Origin: an uncultured Mailhella sp. | Lineage (GTDB): Bacteria; Desulfobacterota; Desulfovibrionia; Desulfovibrionales; Desulfovibrionaceae | DNA length: 64,000 nucleotides | NCBI RefSeq assembly: GCF_944324615.1 | Contig: NZ_CALUWY010000003.1 | Coordinates: 20,559 to 84,558, forward strand | Direction of reading: 5' to 3' | Part shown: one piece after another, positions 5,345 to 61,703 of the stretch | Numbering within the stretch: the stretch's first letter is position 1 | Layout: the number at the start of each line of letters is the position of its first letter | Translations under genes and position numbers: made by a program | The notes under the pieces: model-generated | The model's input: the letters and a program-made list of their open reading frames with translations, nothing else | Told to the model about the DNA's origin: nothing | Database searches by the model: none

Positions 5345-5623
5345 AATTCCTTCCTTTTTCCGTTCGGCTGAACTTACGCGACAATGCCCGCAAGCTCAAG
5401 AAAAAAGCTCCCCTGCCCCGGGGAAACCAAGACACGAAAAAAGGCAGGTCGCAAAACCTGCCTTTTTCGCGCGCATCACGCGCCCGGAAATATCTCGCCA
5501 AGTCCCCGCGGAAGCGATAAACGCCCTTCAAGCGCTTCTGTCCTCCCAGGGAGGCCGCCGCGCCCTTCCGCAAAAACGATCGCTCAGAGCTTCCGTACGG
5601 CCCGCAGGCCGTGAACGGAATGC

Positions 5624-5902
5624 CTAGTCGTTGTTGAGGTATTCCTTGAGTTCCTTACCGGCACGGAAGAAGGGAAGACGCTTGGGGCTGACTTCCACAC
5701 GGTCGCCCGTGCGGGGATTGCGCCCTGCATAGGAACCGTATTCTTTAACCTTGAAACTGCCGAAGCCGCGAATTTCCACACGGTCGCCGGCCAGAAGAGC
5801 CTCCTTCATGCAGTCGACAAAAGTATTGACCACAAGGGTAGCTTCATCCAGCGACACGTTGGACTGTTCGGCGAGATTCTTGATCAGTTCGCTTTTATTC
5901 AT
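5624..5902 (-). CDS. ihfB: Integration host factor beta / HU family DNA-binding protein
   Basis: MNKSELI...VEIRGFGSF...GRNPRTG...PFFRAGKEL signature; IHF-beta versus HU assignment is tentative. Confidence 0.85.
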   Translation of the reverse strand: MNKSELIKNLAEQSNVSLDEATLVVNTFVDCMKEALLAGDRVEIRGFGSFKVKEYGSYAGRNPRTGDRVEVSPKRLPFFRAGKELKEYLNND

Positions 5903-6045
5903 GACATCTCCGTCATACGGTATTGACCTGCCGAGGCGTGCCGGCAGGGAGAAGGATTATGATTCAGGGGATGCCCCCGGGGAACTCCATCACGGCAAGC
6001 CAATTCTCTATAACCCTAAATCCGTTGCCTTGCAAGGAAAAACGC

Positions 6046-7159
6046 CTATTGGCGGCTGTGCTCGTGCTGGTAAAGAAGGTAATCACGCAGGAAGGTGTCG
6101 ATGCGGCCGTTCAGCACGGCGTCCACATCACCGCATTCACAGCCCGTGCGATGATCCTTGACCAGCCGGTAAGGCTGGAGCGTATAGGTGCGTATCTGAC
6201 TGCCGAAGGCGATGGCGTCCTTGCCTGCGTAATCGGCCTGACGCGCGGCGTCGCGCTTGCTCTGCTCGTAGGCGTACAGGCGCGCTTTAAGCACGCGCAT
6301 GGCGCTTTCGCGGTTGCTCTGCTGCGAACGTTCGTTCTGGCACTGGGCCACGATGCCCGTGGGAAGATGCGTGATGCGCACGGCCGATTCGGTCTTGTTC
6401 ACATGCTGACCGCCCGCGCCCGAGGCACGGTACACGTCGATGCGCAGATCGCTTTCCTTGATTTCGATGTTGGAAATCTCCCCGGCGTCGGGAATGAGGT
6501 CCACGGAGGCAAAGGACGTGTGTCTTCTGCCGGAAGCGTCGTAGGGAGAAATGCGGATGAGCCGGTGAATGCCCTTCTCGCCCTTGAGCAGGCCGTAGGC
6601 GTTCTCGCCCTGCATCCGTATGGTGACGGCCTTGATGCCCGCTTCTTCCCCGGGCAGAAAGTCCACGATTTCGGCCTTGATGTGATGCCCTTCAGCCCAG
6701 CGCAGGTACATGCGTTCCAGCATTTCCGCCCAGTCCTGGGCCTCGGTGCCGCCCGCTCCGGGATGAATGTCCAGAAGAGCGTCCATGTGATCGGCCTCGC
6801 CGCTGAGCAGCACGGTCATTTCCGTTTCCGTCAAAAGCTTTTCCAGAATATCGGCCTGTTCGCTCAGAGTTTCCAGGGCCTCTTCCTCGCCCTCGGAAAC
6901 AAAGCCGAGCCACTCCTCCATTTCCTCATAGCTTGCCTGAAGCTCGCGGAAACGGGCGACTTCCGCTTCCAGACGGCTCTTTTCCCTGAGCACGGGGGTC
7001 ATTTTTTCCTGATCGGACCATGCGTCGGGGCTGGAAATGATCGTTTCTATTTCCTGAAGGCGCGCCTCCCGCGTGGGCAGGTCAAAGACGCCCCCAGAGG
7101 GAATTGAACTGTTCGGCAAGGGCATGACAGCGGGAACGCAGTTCGGCCAACTGAAGCAT
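6046..7159 (-). CDS. prfB: Peptide chain release factor 2 (programmed +1 frameshift)
   Basis: ATG at 7159 gives MLQLAELRSRCHALAEQFNSLWGRL then CTT TGA C (7087-7081). The +1 frame continues DLPTREARL... with SPY (SPF-type) and GGQ motifs. The ORF-track start at 7125 is not the real start. Confidence 0.96.
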
Positions 7160-7205
7160 AACGGTATCCTTTTGTATGGTATGGTTTTAATCGATGCAGA
7201 TCATG

Positions 7206-8897
7206 TCAACGCCCGCATCGCGCCTCTTTTCCTCTTCCGCCGCGCAGAGCGGGCAGAACAAGCACGAAAAGAAACGCCAGAGCAAGAGCGGGCAGCCACG
7301 GATGAAGATAGAAATAAGGCGTATGGCCCTGCAAGGCAAGCGCCGTGCCCGTAAGGCTCCCGGCAAGAAACAGCGCGTAGCCGTCCTGTGCCGAACCCAT
7401 GGCGTGTACTCCGCCCAGAGGATCGAGAACGGCGGTGATGCCGCTGTTGGTGGCCCTCAGCACATAACGCCCCTGCTCCACGGCGCGCATGAGGGAAAGC
7501 TGAAGGTGCTGCATGGGCGCGGAGGTGTAGTCGTACCAGGCGTCGTTGCTGATGTTCAGGAGAAGTTCCGCACCTGAGGCCACACGCTTGCGGGAAAGTT
7601 CCGGGAAAATCGCCTCATAGCAGATGAGCATGCCCACATCCGCACGACCGCGCTCCTTCAGATCCAGCGAAAAGAGCTTCTCGCCCGTCCCTGCCGTGAA
7701 GCCCCCGAGTCCCTGCAGCAGAGACTCGAATATCTTCCAGTCGAGAACAGGCGGCAGGTATTCGCCGAAGGGCACGAGATGTTCCTTGTCGTAATGCCCG
7801 GCATCTCCTCCGGGCAGGAGCAGAAAGGCCCGGTTGAAAAGCTCCGTGCCGCCTGCCGAGCGCTCCACCCCCGGAGCGCCGAACATGAGGGGAAGACCGA
7901 GTTCCCGCACAAAGGCGCGCAGTTCCCCGGCAAGAGGCGAAGAGGGATAGGCGAAGGGCATGGCCGTTTCCGGCCAGATGATGAGATCGGGCAGCGCGGG
8001 GGCAAGGGTTCCGTCCGGCTTTTTTCCCAGAGAAAGCCCCATGGAGGCGGCAAGTTCCTCCCGCCCCGGGCCCCGGCCGCTTCCGGCAAGGCCCTGTATG
8101 TCGGCGCGCACGCCCTCCACGCTGAGGCGTATGTAATGTTCCAGCGTCTGCCGCTGATACTCGGGCGACCACTTCACATCCTGCCGCACGCTGCCCTGCA
8201 CCATGGTGCAGACAACGGGCCGGCCTTCCGCGGCCAGCTTCTCCGGCAGGGAGGAAAGCCTCCATGCCCCGAAGGCTACGATGAGCGCGGCCAGGCACGC
8301 CCCTCCCGCAAGAAAAGCCGCCGCGCGCCTTTGCTGCTTTCCGGCAAGCAGAAGAAAGCCCTCGCAAAAAAGAAAGGCCAGAACTGCCAGCATACCGGAA
8401 TAGCCGTATTCTCCCACCAGACTCAGGGGCTGGACAAGCAGCGGCCAGGCCGCAAGGCCCGAGGAGAGCGTCAGCCAGGAAAAACCGGTGCAGAACCAGC
8501 CGCGCGTCCATTCCAGAAGGAACCATACAAGCCCCAGCGCCGGAATCCTCCGCCACGGCGAAAGACCGGAAAGGCGCGAGGCGCAGAGGCAGAACAGCCC
8601 GCCCCACAGGGCGACATAGGTGCCGAGAAGCAGGGAACAGGGCGCGGCCAGAAGCCATGGAAAAGCACCGTACATGTGTGCGGCCACGGCTATCCAGTAC
8701 AGCGCCGCCGCGGCACCGGGAATGCCGACACACCAGCCCAGGCGGAAGGGAATGCCGCTTTCCGCGGCCAGAAAAAGGCATGCAGGGTAAACAAGCACGG
8801 CTCCGGGGACATGAAAAACGGGATTGGGCGTCCCGAGAAAAAGCCCCAGAGAACCGGCGACCACAAGAACAGCACAGAACAATCGGGAAAACGTCAT
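7206..8897 (-). CDS. lnt: Apolipoprotein N-acyltransferase
   Basis: N-terminal TMs, QG(S/N) motif, IWPETA, YDKEHLVPFGEY, LICYEAIF, NDAWY, RATNSGIT. Confidence 0.95.
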   Translation of the reverse strand: MTFSRLFCAVLVVAGSLGLFLGTPNPVFHVPGAVLVYPACLFLAAESGIPFRLGWCVGIPGAAAALYWIAVAAHMYGAFPWLLAAPCSLLLGTYVALWGGLFCLCASRLSGLSPWRRIPALGLVWFLLEWTRGWFCTGFSWLTLSSGLAAWPLLVQPLSLVGEYGYSGMLAVLAFLFCEGFLLLAGKQQRRAAAFLAGGACLAALIVAFGAWRLSSLPEKLAAEGRPVVCTMVQGSVRQDVKWSPEYQRQTLEHYIRLSVEGVRADIQGLAGSGRGPGREELAASMGLSLGKKPDGTLAPALPDLIIWPETAMPFAYPSSPLAGELRAFVRELGLPLMFGAPGVERSAGGTELFNRAFLLLPGGDAGHYDKEHLVPFGEYLPPVLDWKIFESLLQGLGGFTAGTGEKLFSLDLKERGRADVGMLICYEAIFPELSRKRVASGAELLLNISNDAWYDYTSAPMQHLQLSLMRAVEQGRYVLRATNSGITAVLDPLGGVHAMGSAQDGYALFLAGSLTGTALALQGHTPYFYLHPWLPALALAFLFVLVLPALRGGRGKEARCGR

Positions 8898-20367: not shown

Positions 20368-21348
20368 TCAGGGCTGAGCAACTTTCTCCACAAGATGCAT
20401 GCCTATGCCGTTGCGGCCTTTCCGCTTGGCCTGGTACAGGGCCTCGTCCGCACGCTTGATGAAGCTGTCCAGCGATTCCGGCGCGGAGAACTGCGTCACG
20501 CCGAAGCTGCATGTCAGCCCGATGCCGTGAGGAAAATTCCGGCAGTCGTGCACGGCGTCACGGATGCGTTCGGCAAAGGCCATGGCCCCTTCCCAGTCTA
20601 CCATGGGGAGCAGAATCACGAACTCCTCTCCCCCGATGCGGGCAACGACGTCTTCCTCCCGGCAACAGTTCCGGAAACCTGCAGCAAGAACTTTCAGAAC
20701 GGCATCCCCTGCGTCGTGCCCGAAGGTGTCGTTGATCTTCTTGAAAAAATCCACGTCGATCATGACCACGGAAACCGGCTGTTCATGCCGGACGCTCAGC
20801 TTCATCCATTCCAGCGTGCGCTTCTCAAAGGCCCGCCGGTTGAGCAGACCGGTCAGAGGATCGGTATAGCTCATCCTGCGCAGTTCCGCCTGCACCCTCT
20901 CAAGTTCCGCGATCTTCTCCGCAAGCGCCCTTTCCATGATCTTGATGTCGGAAACATCCACCAGGTTGCCTACCAGCCCCTTCTCTCCCGTGGAAGGCAC
21001 GGAAAAGCCCTTGCTCCAGTACAATGCATGCCGTGGACCGGCATACGCAGGGCTTACGGTCTCGTAATGAACAACGCTTCCGTTGCGGATGGCGGCCACA
21101 TCCTCGCGCTGGCATCTTTCCCGGGACTCAGGGGAAAGAAACTCAAGATCCAGCACCGTTTTCCCCAGCAGATCTCTGCGGTCGACATGAAAAAAGTCTT
21201 CATAGGCCTTGTTGAAGAAGCAGAAGCGGGCATCGGCGGATTTGGCGAAAACAGGTGTCGGCAGTTCGTCCAGCACGGCTTCAAGAAAACAGATTCTGCG
21301 GGATAGCTGTTCTATGATTTTTGTGTCGTCGTCATTCATCGTGTTCAC
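20368..21348 (-). CDS. PAS-domain diguanylate cyclase
   Basis: PAS (LPTPVFAK...FFNKAY), DPLTGLLNRR, DVDFFKKINDTFGH..GD, RxxD I-site (REED), GGEEF. Confidence 0.92.
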   Translation of the reverse strand: MNTMNDDDTKIIEQLSRRICFLEAVLDELPTPVFAKSADARFCFFNKAYEDFFHVDRRDLLGKTVLDLEFLSPESRERCQREDVAAIRNGSVVHYETVSPAYAGPRHALYWSKGFSVPSTGEKGLVGNLVDVSDIKIMERALAEKIAELERVQAELRRMSYTDPLTGLLNRRAFEKRTLEWMKLSVRHEQPVSVVMIDVDFFKKINDTFGHDAGDAVLKVLAAGFRNCCREEDVVARIGGEEFVILLPMVDWEGAMAFAERIRDAVHDCRNFPHGIGLTCSFGVTQFSAPESLDSFIKRADEALYQAKRKGRNGIGMHLVEKVAQP

Positions 21349-50711: not shown

Positions 50712-52223
50712 TCATTTCTTTGCGTGGTCTTCCTTATGCTTTTCCCCGGCGTTCTTCAGCGCCTTTTTCAGCGTGTCCCGGCAGGTGCGCAGCACGGCGA
50801 GACGGGCGGCCTTCTTGTCTTCCGCCGCAATGATGTGCCAGGGGGCGTAGCCCGTACTGGTGCGCAGGAACATTTCGTCGGCCGCGCGCACATAGTCGGG
50901 CCAGCGTTCGCGGTTGCGCCAGTCGTCGGGCGTGATCTTGTACTGCTTCCACGGCGTTTCCTCGCGTTCCTTGAAGCGGCGCAGCTGCTCTTCGGGGGAG
51001 AAGTGCAGCCAGAACTTCACGAGCACGTTTCCGCCCGCGACGAGCTGTTCCTCAAAGAGGTTGATTTCCGCATAGGCGCGGCTCCAGTCCTCCGGCGCCG
51101 TCAGGCCTTCCACACGTTCCACCAGCACGCGGCCGTACCAGGAGCGGTCGTATACCGTGACGAAGCCTGCACGGGGAATATGCCGCCAGAAGCGCCACAG
51201 GTAGTGGTGGGCCAGTTCTTCATCGGTGGGAACGCCTATGGGGATGGCCCGGCTGATGCGGGCGTCGATGCCGGCCATGAGGCGGCGTATGCAGCCGCCC
51301 TTGCCCGCCGCGTCCCAGCCTTCAAAAATGATGGTGCTGGAAATGCCCTTCTTCCAGGCCTGATAGGTGAGCTCGCGCAGTTCGTCCTGAAGGTCCTTCA
51401 GATCCTTCTTGTAGGTCTCGGGGTCGGCCTTCACGCTCAGATCGATGGCGTCGAGGGTGGAAATGACGCTTTCCTGCGTGATGGGGGCTTCCTTCGGCCG
51501 GGCTTTTTTCGCGTCCTGTTCGGCAAGGGCGCGGTCCACCGCGGCAATGATGGCCCGCGCCACGGCAAGGTCGCGGTAATTGGCGTCGGCCGCATCCACG
51601 ATGGTCCACGGAGCGCAGGCCCTGTCGGTGAGGGTGATGGCGCGGGAGGCGGCGGAGGCAAGGGCGTCGTAATTTTCCGAGGCCTTCTTGTCGTAGGGCG
51701 TGAAGTGCCGCACCTGCTTGTGTTCCAGCCTTTTCTTCAGCCTTTCGGCGTGCTCCTTCTTGTCCAGATGCAGCCATATCTTGGCTATGGCCATGCCGGA
51801 GGCGGCGAGGCTTTCTTCCAGCCCCCGATAGTGGTGCATGCGGGTGCAGAATTCCATTTCGCTCATGTCGCCCGTGCAGAACATGCGTATGGCGGCCCCG
51901 TACCATCCGCCGAAGAACACGCCCACGGTGCCCGCCGCCGGCAGCCGCAGCCAGTAGCGCCAGTCGCGCGGGCGTTCCCGCTCGTCGTCGGTCTCCATCC
52001 AGAACACATGGTTGTGCACGAACTTGTTGTCCATCCATTCCGAAAGCAGGTTGACGACGGCGCCGCGTCCGGATCCGTCCATACCCGCAATGGTGACGAG
52101 AAGCGGTATTTTCCGTTCGATGCAGCGGCGCTGGGCCTCGAAGAGCTTCATGCGCAGCGCGGGCGCTTCCTCCCTGAACTTCTTGTCGCTGCAGCGTCTG
52201 CCGAGAACGACGGTTTCAAACAT
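50712..52223 (-). CDS. pap: Polyphosphate:AMP phosphotransferase (two-domain PPK2)
   Basis: Tandem PPK2 domains: AGMDGSGRG and FEGWDAAGKGG, YDRSWYGRVLVERV, WKQYKITPDDW. Confidence 0.9.
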   Translation of the reverse strand: MFETVVLGRRCSDKKFREEAPALRMKLFEAQRRCIERKIPLLVTIAGMDGSGRGAVVNLLSEWMDNKFVHNHVFWMETDDERERPRDWRYWLRLPAAGTVGVFFGGWYGAAIRMFCTGDMSEMEFCTRMHHYRGLEESLAASGMAIAKIWLHLDKKEHAERLKKRLEHKQVRHFTPYDKKASENYDALASAASRAITLTDRACAPWTIVDAADANYRDLAVARAIIAAVDRALAEQDAKKARPKEAPITQESVISTLDAIDLSVKADPETYKKDLKDLQDELRELTYQAWKKGISSTIIFEGWDAAGKGGCIRRLMAGIDARISRAIPIGVPTDEELAHHYLWRFWRHIPRAGFVTVYDRSWYGRVLVERVEGLTAPEDWSRAYAEINLFEEQLVAGGNVLVKFWLHFSPEEQLRRFKEREETPWKQYKITPDDWRNRERWPDYVRAADEMFLRTSTGYAPWHIIAAEDKKAARLAVLRTCRDTLKKALKNAGEKHKEDHAKK

Positions 52224-52462
52224 GGAGACCTCACAGGTTATCGGTGACGGGCAATGTCCCTTTTTTCAGAATATCCGCCCTGTTGTGAAAGAGCAAGTAC
52301 GCCCGGGCATATCCCTCATGGGGGAACCTGCCCGGAGCCTGCGGAGCATATGTTCAGGCCGGATTTTCCCCTTTGCGCACAAGGAGCTTCCCGGCCGTGC
52401 GCGCCTTTACCCCCGGGCGGCATTATGGCATATTCGGCACAAGCATGACTCAAGGAGTAGAT

Positions 52463-55126
52463 ATGTCCGCAGTCCATGTTCCTGAACATTCCCGGCCTCT
52501 TCTGGAGGCCATTTCGTCGGGCCGTTCCTTTGAGAAGGACGGTTATGTCTTCGTTGCGGCGGATGACTGGCTCATGGCCATAGGCTACTGTCTGGAGGGG
52601 GAGGAAAGCCCGCAGCGCTTTGAAAAGGTGCTGGAGGAGGTCATCCGGGAGAAAAAGCCCTCGGACTGCTTCGCCATTGCGCCGGAGATGCCCGGAAGTC
52701 TGAAGGAATATGTGCAGGACAGGGACGTGTATTATGTCCTTGCGGCGGATGCTCCCGTGCCTGCCCGCCTGCGCGGGCCGGTGCGCCATGCGCGCGAATG
52801 CCTCACCGTGGATGAGACGCGCTTCTTCACGCCGGAACACCGGCGGCTGTGGGCGGAATTTCTGGGCAGAATCCCCCTGCCTCCGCGCATACGGCAGCTG
52901 TATTCGGGGACGGCCTCCGCGCTGGCCAGGGGGGCGGATCTCCGCCTTCTGAACGCATGGGATGCGGAAGGGCAGCTCGCGGCCTGTCTGCTGCTGGATT
53001 ATTCTCTGCCGGACTGCGTGAGCTATGTGCTGGGCGCCCATTCCAAGACGCATTATGTGCCGCATGCGCCGGATCTTCTTTTTGCCGAAATGCTGGAAAG
53101 AGCCCGTGCGGAGGGAAAGCGTTCCGTGCTTCTCGGCCTCGGCGTGAACGAGGGCATCACCCGCTTCAAGCGCAAATGGGGCGGCGTGCAGGATGTGCCC
53201 TATGAACTTGCGGTATGGCAGCCCGCCGCCGCCCGGGGCGAGAGCGTTCTTTCCGACATGGCGTCGATGCTGGCCATGAACATCGCCTCTTCCTCGGGAG
53301 GGGAGGTCTCGCGCTGGAAATTTTTCGATTCCCTGCCCAGGCAGCGCCCCTGCGCCATGCTCTGGCGGCTGGACAAGAACGGCCGGACCTCGTGGATAGG
53401 CGGCTCGGCCCATTTCTTCTGCTGTTCCTTCGAGTATTCCCTGCGTCGTCTTTTCGAGAACGTGGATACGGTGCTTCTGGAAGGCCCCATTGATTCCGAG
53501 AGCATGGACGAGGTGGCCCGCATAGGCCGCACGCCGGAGCCGGATGCGGACAGGGTGATCCGGCACCTTTCCGAAGAGGACATACGCCGCCTTGAGCGCA
53601 CGGTGTACGGGCCGGAAGGCTTCTGGGCGAGGCTCGGCGGCTGGTGCAGGCCCCGCACGCTGGACGTGCGCCGGGTGCTTGCCGAAAGCCGCCAGTGGTA
53701 TGCCTTCTTTTCCCTGTGGACGGCGTATCTTGAACGCCACGGCTGGACGAATTCCGTGGATCTTGAGGTGTGGAACACCGCGCTGGACATGGGCAAGTCG
53801 GTCATGGGCATGGAAAGCCTCGCCGAACAGATAGCCTCTCTGGAATCGGCCCCCATGCCGCGCATCGTGAAGTTCATGAAGGACTGCTCCTTCTGGCCGA
53901 AGCTCATGAAGAGCAACTGTTCCCGCTACCTTGCGGGCGATCTCATGGGCATGATGGGCACGAGTGCGGAGTTTCCCACCCGCACGGGCACCATCATCAG
54001 CGTGCGCGACCAGCGCTTCCGTGAAAGGATGCGCCCCTATATCGAAAGGGGCGGCACGGCCGTGTTCGTGGGTTCCGCACACATGATCAATCTGCGCAAC
54101 ATGCTGGCCGAGGACGGCTTTACCGTGACGCGCGTGCTGCCCACATGGAAGCACCGTTTTTCCGCCTGGATACGGCGCGACGATACCGTGGTTCTTCCGG
54201 GCAATCCCGATGCTCCCGTGTGGGAGAAGGCGCCGGAAAACGTGCGTTCCCATGCCCTGCAGAGCTCCGTTTCCCATGCAGGAAAGGTGCAGGCGGCCGC
54301 GCATGGACCTTCCTCCGGCCGGGCTCTGGCCGATCTCGGGGCGCGCGCTCTGGTGCCGGAGCAGATACCTTCCTATGTGCGGGCCGTTTCCGGGCGCAGG
54401 CTGCAGTCCTGCGAGGGCTTTGCGGCCTGGACCACGGCGGACAGCTGTACGCTGGTGGCCTTCCCCGCAGAGGATGAGCTTGCCTCCTGTCCTCTGGACA
54501 GCGAGGCGTATGCACTGCGCCTGGAAAAGGCCGTGTCTTCGGCGCTGGCCATGCCCGGCCTGCGGCGCATCACGGTGCTTGCGCCCCTCATTCCCGCGGC
54601 CGCGCCTGCTCAGGCCGTGGTGGAGCGCGACGCATGGTGGTGCGTGAAGCTTCCGCACACTCCGGCGCAGAAACTGCGCAACATGCTGCGCCGCGCCTGC
54701 CGTGAAGCCACACTGTCGGTGGAGGAATGGGGGCCGGAACACGATGCGCTGGTGGATCATTATCTCAAGGTGCGTACCCTTGCCCCGGGAACGCGGCATA
54801 TCTTCGGCCGTGTGGGCAGGTATGTGCAGTCTTCTCCCGAAGCGCTGCTTTTTGCCGCGCGCGATGCCTCGGGGAGGCTCCTTGCCATGGCCGTGGGCGA
54901 TTACAGCGCCTTGAGCACGGCGTTTTACATGTTCGCCTTCCGGCAGGACGACTGCCCGCCCGGCGTGAGCGACGCTCTTCTGCGCGCCCTTGCCGATGAG
55001 GCGGAGCGCAGGGGGCAGAGCACGCTGAATCTCGGCCTCGGCATAGACGGCGGCATCACCTTCTTTAAAAAGAAGTGGGGAGCGTTTCTCGCCATGCCGC
55101 ATCTGGAAACGAGCTGGACGGTATAG
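52463..55126 (+). CDS. FemAB/GNAT-like + TraB/GumN + FemAB/GNAT-like fusion protein
   Basis: ATG 52463 after AAGGAG. Two homologous flanking domains end GLG(V/I)(N/D).GI..FK.KWG. The central domain has TraB/GumN motifs GSAH, LLEG, GMES..EQ, VFVGSAH. Confidence 0.7.
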   Translation: MSAVHVPEHSRPLLEAISSGRSFEKDGYVFVAADDWLMAIGYCLEGEESPQRFEKVLEEVIREKKPSDCFAIAPEMPGSLKEYVQDRDVYYVLAADAPVPARLRGPVRHARECLTVDETRFFTPEHRRLWAEFLGRIPLPPRIRQLYSGTASALARGADLRLLNAWDAEGQLAACLLLDYSLPDCVSYVLGAHSKTHYVPHAPDLLFAEMLERARAEGKRSVLLGLGVNEGITRFKRKWGGVQDVPYELAVWQPAAARGESVLSDMASMLAMNIASSSGGEVSRWKFFDSLPRQRPCAMLWRLDKNGRTSWIGGSAHFFCCSFEYSLRRLFENVDTVLLEGPIDSESMDEVARIGRTPEPDADRVIRHLSEEDIRRLERTVYGPEGFWARLGGWCRPRTLDVRRVLAESRQWYAFFSLWTAYLERHGWTNSVDLEVWNTALDMGKSVMGMESLAEQIASLESAPMPRIVKFMKDCSFWPKLMKSNCSRYLAGDLMGMMGTSAEFPTRTGTIISVRDQRFRERMRPYIERGGTAVFVGSAHMINLRNMLAEDGFTVTRVLPTWKHRFSAWIRRDDTVVLPGNPDAPVWEKAPENVRSHALQSSVSHAGKVQAAAHGPSSGRALADLGARALVPEQIPSYVRAVSGRRLQSCEGFAAWTTADSCTLVAFPAEDELASCPLDSEAYALRLEKAVSSALAMPGLRRITVLAPLIPAAAPAQAVVERDAWWCVKLPHTPAQKLRNMLRRACREATLSVEEWGPEHDALVDHYLKVRTLAPGTRHIFGRVGRYVQSSPEALLFAARDASGRLLAMAVGDYSALSTAFYMFAFRQDDCPPGVSDALLRALADEAERRGQSTLNLGLGIDGGITFFKKKWGAFLAMPHLETSWTV

Positions 55127-55260
55127 GGCCGCGGCGGAAGGCGGCGCCTTCCCGCCTGATGAGCGGAGGCAGTTGTATGCAGAGGGCGTTCTGCGCCCCG
55201 AAGGCTCCGGTTTTCCGGCCCGGAGCGGATGGAAGGAACATAGCCGGCAGGGGGAAAGGT

Positions 55261-56316
55261 ATGCCGTCGAAGGTTGAAGAGCTGTTTTCCCGGTTCCGCG
55301 CTCCGGGACTGTGGCAGGACATACGCGAGTTTTTCCATCCGCGCGAGCTGGAATGCCTGCAGGTGGAAGTGACCTCATGCTGCATGGGCAGGTGCGTGTA
55401 CTGCCCGCACACCACGCGCGCCGACGTGTGGAAGAGCCGCCACATGTCGCCGGAAACCTTTGCCGCGCTGTGGCCCGTGCTGTGCAAGACCTCCCGCGTG
55501 CATCTGCAGGGCTGGGGAGAACCCTTCCTCAATCCGTACTTCATGGATTTCGTGTCGCTGGCGCGGCGGGCGGGGTGCGCCGTTTCCACCACCACCTGCG
55601 GCATGCGCATGGATGAGGAGCTTGCAGAGCGCATTGTGGAAAGCGGCATGGACATTGTGGCCTTTTCCCTTACGGGTACCGACGAGGCAGGCAATGCCGC
55701 CCGGGCCGGGGTTCCCTTTGCCCGGGTGGAGGAGGCCGTGCGCACCCTGCAGAAGGTGCGCAGAGCAAAGAACGCCGTGCATCTGGAAATTCATCTGGCC
55801 TACCTCATGCTTGCCTCGCAGGTGGAGGGCGTGCGCGGCCTGCCGGAACTCATGGATGCGTGGGGCGTGCATGCGGCCGTGGTGAGCACCATGGACTACA
55901 TCCCTTCGCCGGACATGGCGCATGAGGCCTTCGCCCCCCATGAGCGGGAGAAGATAGAGGCCGCGCGCGTGGTGCTGGAGGAAACCGGCGCGAAGGTGCG
56001 CGCCGCAGGGCATGATTTCTATGCCTCGCTCCCTGCGCCGGAACCGGCTCCCTGCTGCCGGGAAAGGGCGCATAAAACCATGTATGTGGATGCGGAGGGG
56101 CATATTTCCCCCTGCGTGTACCTGAATGTGCCGCTGGATGCCCCTGATGCGCGGCGCACCGTGTTCGGCAATGTCGGGGAGGAAAGTCCCGTCGCCATAT
56201 GGGAAAAGCCGGAGTATGCCGCGTTCCGCACAGAAGTGCAGACGAGCGATCCGCCTTCCGCCTGTCTTTCCTGCGCCAAGCGCTTCGAGGCCCCCTGCGC
56301 CCTGCAGAACGGCTGA
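55261..56316 (+). CDS. Radical SAM enzyme with SPASM/Twitch domain
   Basis: CMGRCVYC (CxxxCxxC), QGWGEP, C-terminal C...G.ISPC...FGN...W...CLSC; start at ATG 55261 after GGGGGAAAGG. Confidence 0.9.
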   Translation: MPSKVEELFSRFRAPGLWQDIREFFHPRELECLQVEVTSCCMGRCVYCPHTTRADVWKSRHMSPETFAALWPVLCKTSRVHLQGWGEPFLNPYFMDFVSLARRAGCAVSTTTCGMRMDEELAERIVESGMDIVAFSLTGTDEAGNAARAGVPFARVEEAVRTLQKVRRAKNAVHLEIHLAYLMLASQVEGVRGLPELMDAWGVHAAVVSTMDYIPSPDMAHEAFAPHEREKIEAARVVLEETGAKVRAAGHDFYASLPAPEPAPCCRERAHKTMYVDAEGHISPCVYLNVPLDAPDARRTVFGNVGEESPVAIWEKPEYAAFRTEVQTSDPPSACLSCAKRFEAPCALQNG

Positions 56317-56470
56317 GCCCTGCGGGGTGTTTTGCGGCGCGGGCGGAGAGGGGCTTTCCGGCGGGGCGTCGTCACTGCCGGAAGCCGGGAATGCGCGGAG
56401 CCGTGCGAGCCGGCAGGAGGGAAGCCCTCTGCCTTCTGGAAACATGCAACACTGGAAAAAGGGAGAAATC

Positions 56471-56956
56471 ATGTTTGTTCGTCATGCCACCATGGCCGAC
56501 CTTGCGGCCGTTGCCTCCGTGGAAAAGCGTTGTTTTCCCGCGGCGGAGGCCGCCACGGAAGAGGAGTTCCGGGAACGTCTCGCCGCCTATGCCGACCATT
56601 TCTGGCTGCTTTTTGATGAGGAGGGCAACCTTGTTTCCTTCATCGACGGCATGGCCACGGATGAGCCGGATCTTGCGGACGACATGTATGCCGACGCCTC
56701 CCTGCACAGGAAAGACGGCTGCTGGCAGATGATCTTCGGACTGAATACCGTGCCGGAACACAGGGGAAAGGGCTGTGCCGCCATGCTTGTCCGCCGCCTT
56801 GTGGAGGATTCCAGAGCGCGGGGAAAGAAGGGCGTGGTGCTCACCTGCAAGGAGGCGCTCATTCCGTATTACGCCTCCTTCGGTTTTAAGGATGAGGGCG
56901 TATCCTCCTCCACCCACGGCAATGTGGTGTGGCATCAGATGCGGCTTTCCTTCTGA
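56471..56956 (+). CDS. GNAT N-acetyltransferase (AANAT/polyamine acetyltransferase-like)
   Basis: E..CF...EAAT, FGLNT.PEHRGKGCA, LTCKEALIPYY..FGF; start at ATG 56471 after GGGAG. Confidence 0.88.
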   Translation: MFVRHATMADLAAVASVEKRCFPAAEAATEEEFRERLAAYADHFWLLFDEEGNLVSFIDGMATDEPDLADDMYADASLHRKDGCWQMIFGLNTVPEHRGKGCAAMLVRRLVEDSRARGKKGVVLTCKEALIPYYASFGFKDEGVSSSTHGNVVWHQMRLSF

Positions 56957-57351
56957 AATGTCCTGAAATTCAGGACAGGGAAGCGCGCATGCCGCTGAAG
57001 GCCGGGGACGCATGTTTCCGGCCTTTCGTTTTCCCCTTCCGCACCGGAAAGGCGGATTTTTGTGCGGAAAAAAGCTGTTAAAAGAAAAACGACATGATCC
57101 TGACGGATTATGATTTTTTTGCGCAAAAAAGAGCAATGTCGGTGGATGAGCCTCCTTGCATAAATTTTTCAGCTGGTCTACTTGCCTTTGTGAGCAGTAT
57201 AGCGGGGGTGTCTCAGTGACGGGTCGGGGCCCTGAACGGAGCACCGCCGCCCGTACCCGGGCGGCCTGTCCGCTTCTGCTCTTGAGATCGGGCGGCGTTT
57301 TCCCGTGCGATGGTTGCACGAAGAAGGCCCGCCATAGGAGAGGTTGTTTGT

Positions 57352-58800: not shown

Positions 58801-58894
58801 CGGCTGGGTCAGTCTGACCGGGGCCGCCGCGTGAGCGGCGGCCCTTTTTTTCTCCCTTCCAAGGCCGTGAAGGGACCCTTTCGGGGAGTTGACG

Positions 58895-59908
58895 ATGCTG
58901 TATTTCAAACCCGCCAGACTGGGCGGAACCGCCCTGAATGATCAGGAACTCAGGGAAGACCGGAAGTCCTGCCTGGTGTTCGGCCCCTGCGGCGTGGGAG
59001 CAAAGGCCCTGTATCTGAACAGCCTTTTTCTCGACCGCCGCTTCTATATCCCGGTATCCAACATCCGCAGAGCCTACAAGCGCGTTGCCATGAGCAGGGG
59101 CGCGTTTACCGGCAAGGGCATTTTCGGTTCCATTCCCTACCTGGTGGTGGAATACGACAAAGGGGAGAGCGTGCAGTGCACCTTCAAGTACGAGCGCCAT
59201 GTGGATATGATGATCGCCGAGATACAGCGCCGCTTCCCCCATATCAAGACCATGTCCGAGGCGGCGGCGAAACGGCTTGCCGAAGCAAAGGCCGCGGAAG
59301 AGGCCCGCTACAGGAAGGATCTTTCCCCGAAGGCTCAGGCCAGCCTGGAAGAACTTCGTCGCGCAAAGGCCTATCTGGAAGAGCGGCCCGACCTTGCCAC
59401 GCGCCTTGCCGCCGCAAGCAAGGCCAGACGCGTGGATCAGATGACGAATCCCCTGCAGAAGTGGGTGGCTCTGGCCATTTTCTGCCTTGCTCTGGTGGCC
59501 TCGGTGTACGGCGTGTACATCTGGTCCACAGGATCCGGGGATTACGGGCTTTATATCACCCTTGTCGGTCTTGCCGCGCTCTTTTTCTTTGCCGGAGCCA
59601 ACGTGCTGCCCACGGCCCGCAACAACCGCAGGGCCATCATTGCGGCGCTGGAAAAGGCGCGCGGCGATGTGGAGGAGTACATAAGCGCCTACCCGGATTT
59701 TCCGCTTCCCGCCCGCTACGCCCACCCCGCCACGCTTTCGCGCATGATCCGCTCCATACGCGAAGGCCGTTCGGAAACCGTGCCCGAGTCCTACGAGGAT
59801 ATGAAGGCCGTGCTGAAGTCCCTGAATTCCAGCGTGCGCGTCAGTCAGACGGAATACGATGAGGTGGTGGCCATAAAGCCCATGTTTCTGCTGGAAAATT
59901 ATAAGTAG
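58895..59908 (+). CDS. Conserved hypothetical membrane protein (two central TMs)
   Basis: Host-like codon usage, GGGGAG RBS, two TMs near residues 190-235; no catalytic motif recognised. Confidence 0.7.
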   Translation: MLYFKPARLGGTALNDQELREDRKSCLVFGPCGVGAKALYLNSLFLDRRFYIPVSNIRRAYKRVAMSRGAFTGKGIFGSIPYLVVEYDKGESVQCTFKYERHVDMMIAEIQRRFPHIKTMSEAAAKRLAEAKAAEEARYRKDLSPKAQASLEELRRAKAYLEERPDLATRLAAASKARRVDQMTNPLQKWVALAIFCLALVASVYGVYIWSTGSGDYGLYITLVGLAALFFFAGANVLPTARNNRRAIIAALEKARGDVEEYISAYPDFPLPARYAHPATLSRMIRSIREGRSETVPESYEDMKAVLKSLNSSVRVSQTEYDEVVAIKPMFLLENYK

Positions 59909-60608: not shown

Positions 60609-61703
60609 TTACTGGATGGTTTCAGGATCGATGAAGATCCAGTTCTTGTTGGCGGTGACGGGCATGTTCAGCTCGTTCTGCTGCTGGGCGGACTTTTCGG
60701 CATGGTCGATGGTCCAGAGGGCCTTCTTGTCCTTCTTGGGATCGCCGGGCTTGCGGTTGATCCACAGCTTGAGGCCGCCGCGTTCCACGTTCACGCTTTC
60801 CAGCATGTAGGTGTCGGAACCGGTGGAGTCGCCGCCGGCCATGATGGGACGCTGCCACTGGTTGATGTAACCGATGGTGGAACCCTGCTTGCCTTCAAAC
60901 CAGGTCATGGGGTTGGTGAGGAAGGCGGTGGTCACGAGATCCTTGTTCTTTTCGGGGTCGTACTTGCCGTCGCGGATCTGCATGCGGGAGTTGGTGAGTT
61001 CGCCGGTCTTGGGATTCTTGAGCAGCACGGTCACGCCGATGACCTTTTCAGGATCCACGTTGTAGCCGTACTTGGGATCGCAGGCCACCATGCGGATGAT
61101 TTCTTCATGGGCGGCGGTCATGATGTACACGTCGATGCCGTTCTCGCGCAGCTTGGCATAGAGTTCCTGCATGCCGCGGAACATCTTGGGAATGGGCAGC
61201 TTCACGGTGACGACCTTGTCGCCGTCCCACACCTGGCGTTCGATGGGCTTCTTGAGGGCCAGCATTTCATCGAGGTTCTTCTTGAGTTCCTTCAGCGTGA
61301 AGCCGGCGAAGATCTGGGAGGCCCAGGGATAGCTGATGAGGTCGTGCATTTCGCACAGACGCCAGTAGTAGCTCGTCATGTTTTCCTTGCCGCCCTTGAA
61401 GTCCGGGCTGTCCTTGAAGGGAATGAGCTTCAGGGACGGATCCATGGTTTCGCGGGTCAGCAGGCCCTTCTGGTCCATATAGGCCAGCAGCGGATCCAGA
61501 AGGTCGTAGCGGTAGGTGGTCTGATCCATGTCAAAGGTGGCGAACTGGCCCTGATGGGCGTTGGCCTGGATCATGGCTTCGATCTGCGCGCGGGCTTCCT
61601 TGGGCCAGTGCTTGAGTTCGGTGGCCGCGTTCGCACTGCCGATCATCATGGCGCAGCAGAAGGCGGAGGCGAGCAGAGCATTGAGAAGTTTCTTGATCGT
61701 CAT
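60609..61703 (-). CDS. pchP: Secreted phosphorylcholine phosphatase (HAD superfamily)
   Basis: Sec signal ...SANA, then [44 protein letters not shown]; closely resembles Pseudomonas PchP as I recall it. Confidence 0.85.

Follow-up and report, generated by a model that had tools for sequence, protein, structure and literature searches.

Which pathway is served by a multidomain fusion protein and a radical S-adenosylmethionine (SAM) enzyme that are encoded side by side with no substrate gene in view? The question is raised by a locus from an uncultured Mailhella sp. (Desulfovibrionaceae), contained in a stretch of 64,000 nucleotides (contig NZ_CALUWY010000003.1, positions 20,559 to 84,558) that is referred to here as the window. 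Homologues with 74-92% identity bear names that agree with the placement in Mailhella. Three co-oriented open reading frames (ORFs) with plausible ribosome-binding sites (RBS) lie on its forward strand: the fusion gene (52463-55126, 887 amino acids (aa), AAGGAG 7 nt upstream of the ATG), the radical SAM (rSAM) gene (55261-56316, 351 aa, GGGGGAAAGG upstream of the ATG) and a gene for a small GNAT protein (56471-56956, 161 aa, AGGGAG upstream of the ATG). The intergenic gaps of 134 and 154 bp agree with the layout given in the original prediction, an earlier reading of this DNA that took the genes for an undescribed protein- or cofactor-modification pathway. That reading is partly supported. In the fusion gene and the rSAM gene we recognise the Mailhella version of a module of four enzymes, conserved and self-contained, in which two independent fusions have occurred. 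The folds are those of FemX/MprF, TIKI and twitch-rSAM enzymes, residues of catalytic type are kept, and no substrate gene is linked to the module. Each part belongs to a known superfamily; the combination and its product are undescribed.

Conservation and distribution of the module

An rSAM alignment scan with one genome per species gave 509 loci, the best 80 of which were fetched. At 70 of the 80, a Fem-like module, a TraB domain, a second Fem-like module and the rSAM follow one another in the same order and on the same strand. These loci come from Mailhella, Bilophila wadsworthia, Desulfovibrio, Desulfobacterales and Syntrophobacteraceae. Such a grouping, with the same partners in the same order at 70/80 loci, is far beyond chance, and the co-conservation of fusion gene and rSAM on which the original prediction hinged is borne out. 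The other ten rSAM loci are cut by contig ends (about five), carry an inverted second Fem-like gene (two) or contain the rSAM alone (three). Three architectures are represented among the 70 ordered loci. Fem::TraB, Fem and rSAM are three separate genes at 47 loci, TraB is fused to the second Fem-like module at 21 loci (the Mailhella clade, window included), and the second Fem-like module is fused to the rSAM at two Syntrophobacteraceae loci. Most other lineages encode the second Fem-like module in a gene of its own (about 290 aa). In the window genome the gene set is single-copy. The module is a well-delimited and deeply conserved enzyme set in gut sulfide producers (Bilophila wadsworthia, Mailhella and gut Desulfovibrio), and it also occurs in environmental sulfate reducers and syntrophs.

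The distribution across the phylum was followed in an even sample of 301 genomes. Close orthologues of the window rSAM (at least 49% identity) were found in 5/301 genomes, and the Fem/TraB/Fem cassette in 27/301. Among these 27 cassette genomes, 14-15 have an adjacent rSAM, nine have none and three are cut by contig ends. The genomes with an adjacent rSAM include ten distant cassettes, with domains 29-40% identical to those of the window; their rSAM is of a second subclade, which is about 27% identical to the window rSAM and keeps the same four cysteines and the lysine that follows them. Moreover, metagenomic relatives recovered by profile search include stand-alone Fem, TraB, Fem trios without an rSAM. 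Paralogues of the rSAM at 32-41% identity sit in variable contexts from which Fem or TraB partners are absent. The association is thus asymmetric: an rSAM of the window type hardly ever occurs away from the cassette, but the cassette often occurs without an rSAM. This asymmetry suggests that the rSAM acts on the product of the cassette, and on these comparisons it looks like a dependent tailoring step, placed downstream.

Two loci have unusual arrangements. The first (L082, G128:C10, about 5534-7414) appears to hold a degraded cassette, in which one open frame of 661 aa runs from a Fem-like module through TraB residues 2-103 directly into rSAM residues 100-343; the locus has neither the remaining part of TraB nor the second Fem-like gene, owing to a deletion or a misassembly. 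In the second (L096, G044:C10, 4142-5471), a cassette without an rSAM precedes genes for a 137-aa GNAT and a 323-aa protein with a genuine LPG_synthase_C match (89 bits), the latter being a third Fem/MprF-like paralogue in the place of the rSAM. LarA-type genes (Lar_N/LarA_C) were also seen a few genes away from two distant Fem/TraB/Fem cassettes (L092, 5769-7037, and a JGI contig), which may be a coincidence.

The small GNAT gene is a lineage-specific neighbour outside the conserved module, with which it is possibly co-transcribed. Its product matches the Pfam families Acetyltransf_1/_7/_9/_10 and scores 26.8 bits on the RimI model, against 86.4. The gene occurs at no fetched locus other than the 13 of Mailhella that are closest to the window (L001-L013, rSAM identity at least 79%); Mailhella loci at 70-78% rSAM identity are among those that lack it. 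The earlier suspicion that this gene is unrelated is upheld by its confinement to these loci. Beyond it, all-against-all clustering of the ORFs at the 80 loci revealed no further gene family common beyond close relatives, and Pfam assigned the few recurrent neighbours to unrelated functions (D-Ser-dehydratase-like, sulphur transport, GT2, YeiH-like, ABC and HD). The MprF-type flippase family (PF03706) is present in all nine genomes tested, and its co-occurrence is therefore uninformative.

Lastly, a substrate gene was sought. Among 1782 small ORFs scanned around the four-part cassette loci, none is common beyond close relatives, and the search around the cassette loci gave no PqqD partner, no transporter or leader peptidase and no further conserved neighbour. 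Neighbour clustering and the small-ORF scan therefore both agree with the original prediction that no substrate gene is linked to these enzymes. Within the window, a 64-aa Cys-containing ORF (52254-52448) was considered as a precursor and rejected because its protein sequence is not conserved even at L001, the nearest of the fetched Mailhella loci (rSAM 92% identical), where only the 54 nt directly upstream of the start codon of the fusion gene are conserved in this region. No conserved counterpart was found for a second, 34-aa ORF (55173-55277).

Folds and retained residues of the four parts

AlphaFold2 (AF2) modelling of the 887-aa fusion protein with 29 homologues (mean predicted local distance difference test (pLDDT) score 81.8) gave three folded domains at about residues 1-255, 290-575 and 615-887, with disordered linkers between them (256-286 after the first, whose fold is predicted with confidence). 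The two outer domains are Fem-like modules of the tandem-GNAT transferase type. Module 1 (52463-53227, forward strand, residues 1-255) matches Pfam Acetyltransf_6 over residues 105-237 (E 8e-8, 32.9 bits against a cut-off of 22). Module 2 (54305-55126, forward strand, residues 615-887) has a weak match to Pfam LPG_synthase_C over residues 734-859 (E 6e-4, 19.3 bits), which lies under the cut-off of 27.5. The two modules are paralogues, 24-32% identical in cross-hits, and the same residue set is kept in both across their relatives. In module 1 this set, as kept across distant cassettes, comprises P7 E8 H9, D88, H126, Y188, D204, L224-G-L-G227 and F235 K236 x K238 W239 G240; in module 2 it comprises P632 E633, D723, H760, Y787, D837, L857-G-L-G860 and F868 K869 x K871 W872. 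Both carry a terminal L-G-L-G ... F-K-x-K-W-G motif, of which F235-K236 and F868-K869 are kept in all cassettes. A Phe-Lys pair is catalytic in DhpH-C (F328-K329), as is Lys305 in FemX (PMC12945691).

When the AF2 model was searched against the PDB with Foldseek, the best matches of both flanking domains were the alanyl- and lysyl-phosphatidylglycerol synthase (A-PGS/L-PGS) domains of MprF, Weissella FemX and the tRNA-dependent peptide synthases Sbb17/Sba18. Matches to aminoacyl-tRNA-dependent enzymes (4v34, 4v36, 1ne9, 4ii9, 7z6a, 9wqx and 9wqy) have E values of about 1e-7 to 1e-8. For 4v34, 4v36, 1ne9, 4ii9 and 9wqx the probability is 1.00 with target TM-scores of 0.50-0.57, which places both domains in the double-GNAT fold. 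Acyl-CoA tandem GNATs (VipF, the clavulanate tandem GNAT and NMT), and also WecD, come close behind in the same list. At the level of sequence, the Fem-like modules have no NCBIfam match, and a sequence and profile search of the PDB with the fusion protein gave no match at E values up to 1. The two 'ligase-like' domains of the original prediction are present but are not ligases, their fold being that of tandem-GNAT transferases of the FemX/MprF class.

Two known systems are closest to these modules. The synthase domain of MprF (LPG_synthase_C/DUF2156; 4v34, 4v36) shares the tandem-GNAT fold, supplies top Foldseek matches and belongs to the family weakly matched by module 2. However, the window protein has no membrane or flippase domain, scores below the family cut-off and contains two paralogous modules. 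In contrast to MprF-type systems, moreover, its partner hydrolase is of the TIKI/TraB type rather than an alpha/beta hydrolase, and an rSAM partner is present. The pairing of an aminoacylating enzyme with a hydrolase is itself a known logic for aminoacyl lipids. The FemABX peptidyltransferases and their relatives from natural-product pathways (FemX_Wv, DhpH-C, DhpK, PacB, VlmA and Orf11/Sbb17) resemble the modules in being built of two GNATs and in having an F-K motif of catalytic type towards the C-terminal end of the second one, and the two paralogues of the cassette, if acting in series, recall FemA/FemB or DhpH/DhpK. Unlike FemABX, the cassette has no peptidoglycan or antibiotic-cluster context, and the profile search noted above linked it to no solved structure.

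Between the two modules lies a TraB/PrgY/GumN hydrolase domain of the TIKI superfamily (53330-54187, forward strand, residues 290-575), which is matched by the whole of Pfam PF01963 (TraB_PrgY_gumN; residues 299-557, model 1-263/263, 102.8 bits against 26.8, E 4e-29). Residues H317 (GGSAH), E340, E451, E455, R507, R515 and H540 (GSAH) are kept in 71 close and 16 distant sequences. A 2His/2Glu motif has been described for active TIKI enzymes (PMC6254334), and the conserved His and Glu residues appear to fit it, the equivalence being judged from the GxxH motifs. The full-length PF01963 match, the two GxxH motifs and the conserved Glu are features in common with Tiki, RRSP, erythromycin esterase and ChaN. 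Unlike its relatives in the superfamily, the TraB domain of the cassette is fused to transferases and is cytoplasmic, with no signal peptide or transmembrane segment evident in the sequence of the fusion protein. The domain ends in a basic amphipathic segment, PTWKHRFSAWIRR (window 54148-54181, fusion residues 562-574). Its counterpart in other Desulfovibrionaceae is the C-terminal tail of the separate Fem::TraB proteins (PTWRHRLRAAIRG, LLPRLKLGLRRWR), and Desulfobacterales and Syntrophobacteraceae have no segment of this type.

In lineages other than the Mailhella clade, the second Fem-like protein runs past the end of its fold (..ETSW) by a tail of 12-30 residues. In 44 tails, the residues following the first hydrophobic pair read PhiPhi-[S/G/A]-[R/K]-Phi-[R/Phi]-[G/S]-x-Phi, with a hydrophobic occupancy per position of 100, 100, 2, 2, 91, 48, 5, 53 and 86% (for example GILSRLFGG, GLLARLLGA and GWLARLLGR). 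The membrane-targeting sequence of E. coli MinD is KGFLKRLFGG (PMC5471200), and the element PhiPhi-x-[RK]-Phi-(Phi/R)-G of the 44 tails is in the same register. The helical hydrophobic moment of the tails is marginally above that of shuffled sequences (10-24% of shuffles reach the observed value, and fixed windows are not significant), and the tails of distant cassettes are amphipathic but more acidic. The window fusion protein has no such basic-hydrophobic tail, ending in ETSWTV, and keeps PTWKHRFSAWIRR as an internal basic helix after the TraB domain. As a motif-level lead, the tail could be a peripheral membrane anchor or a docking helix. If it is a membrane anchor, a lipid or lipid-linked acceptor would be favoured.

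The fourth part, the rSAM, matches Radical_SAM (PF04055; 64.8 bits against 29.5) and SPASM (40 bits against 21.5). The CxxxCxxC and QGWGEP motifs that had been read in the sequence are confirmed at C41-x3-C45-x2-C48 and Q83-G-W-G-E-P88, and further cysteines occur as C266-x13-G280-x4-C285 ... C335-x2-C338. C41/C45/C48, GWGE, C266, G280, C285, C335, C338 and K340 are kept in both rSAM subclades. The full seven-Cys SPASM pattern (CX9-15GX4C ... CX2CX5CX3C ... C) is absent, with only C266, C285, C335 and C338 conserved, and most orthologues terminate directly after CxxCxKRF. A BtrN-like twitch pattern (C-x18-C ... C-x2-C) was found in both subclades instead. Thus, of the joint SPASM/Twitch label in the original prediction, the full SPASM part falls in spite of the 40 bits, and the cysteine count in both subclades points to a four-Cys twitch-type domain with a single predicted auxiliary cluster. 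A match of NF033640 to residues 273-341 (37.8 bits, cut-off 170) is at the level of the motif only. The database gene call for this enzyme is 379 aa long and starts 28 codons further upstream; the orthologue alignment favours the 351-aa start used here.

The best NCBIfam matches of the rSAM are TIGR04311 (rSAM/SPASM putative metalloenzyme maturase; 116 bits, cut-off 400) and TIGR04317 (tungsten cofactor oxidoreductase rSAM maturase; 115.9 bits, cut-off 380). These families are the nearest curated models, and the enzyme reaches less than a third of the score that they demand. On TIGR04317, orthologues from Bilophila and Desulfobacterales reach 89 and 113 bits, and more distant paralogues from the phylum are likewise under the cut-offs. 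The rSAM therefore lies outside any characterised family, as had been anticipated, and has invariants of its own (Q34, E36, GWGE, R148, H178, E268, W314, R323 and K340). In its AF2 model (mean pLDDT 91.3) the core starts near residue 30 and so leaves no room for a RiPP recognition element (RRE) or PqqD-like domain, RiPP standing for ribosomally synthesised and post-translationally modified peptide; neither Pfam nor the model revealed such a domain. The Foldseek neighbours of the rSAM include both small-molecule enzymes (DesII, BlsE, BtrN, viperin and MoaA) and modifiers of peptides or proteins (CteB, SuiB, SkfB, PqqE and anSME). Of these, BtrN shares the twitch pattern and the lack of an RRE, and DesII and BlsE are also among the top fold matches. 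Unlike a BtrN orthologue, the window rSAM has its own family invariants, and its sequence relation with BtrN is limited to the cluster-binding N-terminus.

Proposed mechanism and rival explanations

Taken together, these data lead us to propose, with about even confidence, that the module decorates a common acceptor by tRNA-dependent transfer, TIKI hydrolysis and rSAM tailoring. The two tandem-GNAT modules, for which the fold matches of the models suggest aminoacyl-tRNA as the donor, would use chemistry of the FemX/MprF type to transfer one or two aminoacyl residues from charged tRNA to an acceptor that is common in the cell and encoded elsewhere, joining them to an amine or hydroxyl group. 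A small molecule, a lipid head group or a lipid-linked precursor would be a more likely acceptor than a dedicated peptide of ribosomal origin. Hydrolysis of an ester or amide of the transferase product by the TIKI/TraB domain would serve to trim, release or reverse it, and the twitch rSAM would perform an oxygen-independent C-H tailoring of the product, downstream of the cassette.

Several points weigh against this mechanism. Module 2 is under the Pfam cut-off for LPG_synthase_C, K236 and K869 are likened to Lys305 of FemX by motif, and, with acyl-CoA tandem GNATs in the list of fold matches as well, tRNA dependence is a prediction. The rSAM could still act on a protein or peptide, because CteB, SuiB, SkfB, PqqE and anSME are equally close to it structurally.

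The donor is the first point at which a rival must be weighed. Were acyl-CoA used, the module would acylate and deacylate a metabolite or lipid, its N- or O-acylated product being tailored by radical chemistry. Module 1 matches Acetyltransf_6, a family defined as GNAT N-acetyltransferase domains, and VipF, the clavulanate tandem GNAT, WecD and NMT are all among the fold matches. However, the best fold matches and the sole Pfam family match of module 2 are aminoacyl-tRNA-dependent enzymes, and F-K-x-K-W-G resembles the Phe-Lys catalytic pair of Fem-type enzymes. We regard acyl-CoA donors as rather unlikely.

The acceptor is the second. A RiPP-like modification of a protein or peptide, with its precursor encoded elsewhere, would have the Fem-like modules extend an amine, the rSAM cross-link or oxidise the chain and the TIKI domain cleave it as a protease, and we consider this doubtful to the same degree. 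The peptide and protein modifiers listed above, and also ChlB, are structurally near the rSAM, the TIKI family includes proteases (Tiki and RRSP; PMC6254334), and some graspetide loci hold both Tiki/TraB peptidases and SPASM maturases (PMC8939145). Nevertheless, neither an RRE or PqqD-like domain or partner nor a linked precursor peptide, by which a RiPP maturase would be recognised, was found: the rSAM core begins too early for such a domain, a PqqD gene is absent, the four-part loci and their surroundings yielded no conserved small ORF, and the neighbour search gave no transporter, leader peptidase or other conserved gene. Conservation of this kind without a linked precursor in any lineage would be unusual for a RiPP, and the distant RiPP precursor that the original prediction had put forward as a candidate is disfavoured.

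A more specific form of the proposed aminoacyl transfer is that the cassette makes and remodels a hitherto unknown aminoacylated membrane lipid or lipid-linked precursor in these strictly anaerobic sulfidogenic bacteria. The two transferases, tRNA-dependent and held at the membrane by the MinD-like tails, would build an aminoacyl or dipeptidyl head group. Its removal or trimming would fall to the TIKI domain as an esterase or amidase, and its oxygen-independent modification to the twitch rSAM. We offer this as a speculation that is, on balance, unlikely in so definite a form. If true, such a lipid system at the cell surface could be relevant to the resistance of Bilophila and Mailhella to cationic peptides of the host.

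A horizontally spread conflict or defence module, making for example a modified nucleotide or an aminoacyl toxin, is very improbable. The patchy distribution, the varying genomic context and weak matches of the rSAM to pVip models might suggest it. However, the PADLOC matches are to the generic rSAM core only (30-36 bits), with none for the fusion protein, no defence-island genes were seen among the neighbours tested, and base composition is even across the region, with no island signature.

Finally, the other candidate of the original prediction, that the rSAM matures a tungsten or molybdenum aldehyde:ferredoxin oxidoreductase (AOR) or its pterin cofactor, rests on TIGR04311 and TIGR04317 being its best NCBIfam matches and was rejected as having next to no probability: the scores fail the cut-offs for the window rSAM and its distant paralogues alike, PF01314 (AFOR_C), followed in nine genomes, is lacking in G207, which has the cassette, and occurs in four relatives of the same family that have no cassette (G041, G079, G146 and G293), so that AOR presence does not track the cassette, no AOR is among the recurrent neighbours tested by Pfam, and the AOR gene of the window genome itself is on another contig.

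In the literature searched, we found neither a Fem-type pathway fused or linked to TIKI and rSAM enzymes nor TraB, GumN and radical SAM treated together in one paper, and no description of the cassette. If the Fem-like modules do use charged tRNA, tRNA-dependent chemistry outside the ribosome would gain a new branch in which a TIKI hydrolase and radical chemistry are coupled to the transfer. The natural fusions and the rSAM-less variants provide ready-made genetic contrasts, and the system is directly testable because Bilophila is culturable.

Flanking sequence and neighbouring genes

Upstream of the fusion gene, a conserved non-coding leader (52405-52462, forward strand) is a probable promoter-proximal region that includes the 5′ untranslated region and the RBS. 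Only bases 182-235 of the 239-bp intergenic region could be aligned to other Mailhella loci (76-91% identity). A sigma-70-like consensus site was looked for in this region and not found, and an Rfam scan of the window and seven loci gave no riboswitch or other element upstream of the operon. Downstream of the small GNAT gene is a terminator-like hairpin (57093-57112), the sole site on the forward strand between 52000 and 57400; as shuffled sequences gave a mean of 5.5 such sites against the one observed, it is weak evidence only.

The upstream flank encodes an AbgT transporter, an M20 peptidase and a two-domain polyphosphate kinase 2 (PPK2) on the opposite strand, and the downstream flank encodes CstA. 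The PPK2 gene (50712-52223, reverse strand; PF03976 in two stretches, E 1e-120) is divergent from the cassette and is kept as its neighbour in close Mailhella relatives only. Further downstream, proteins of 339 aa (58889-59908, forward strand) and 363 aa (60609-61703, reverse strand) have no Pfam match. At one Desulfobacterales locus (L033), a fluoride riboswitch (20662-20726) lies about 10 kb from the cassette and is unrelated to it.

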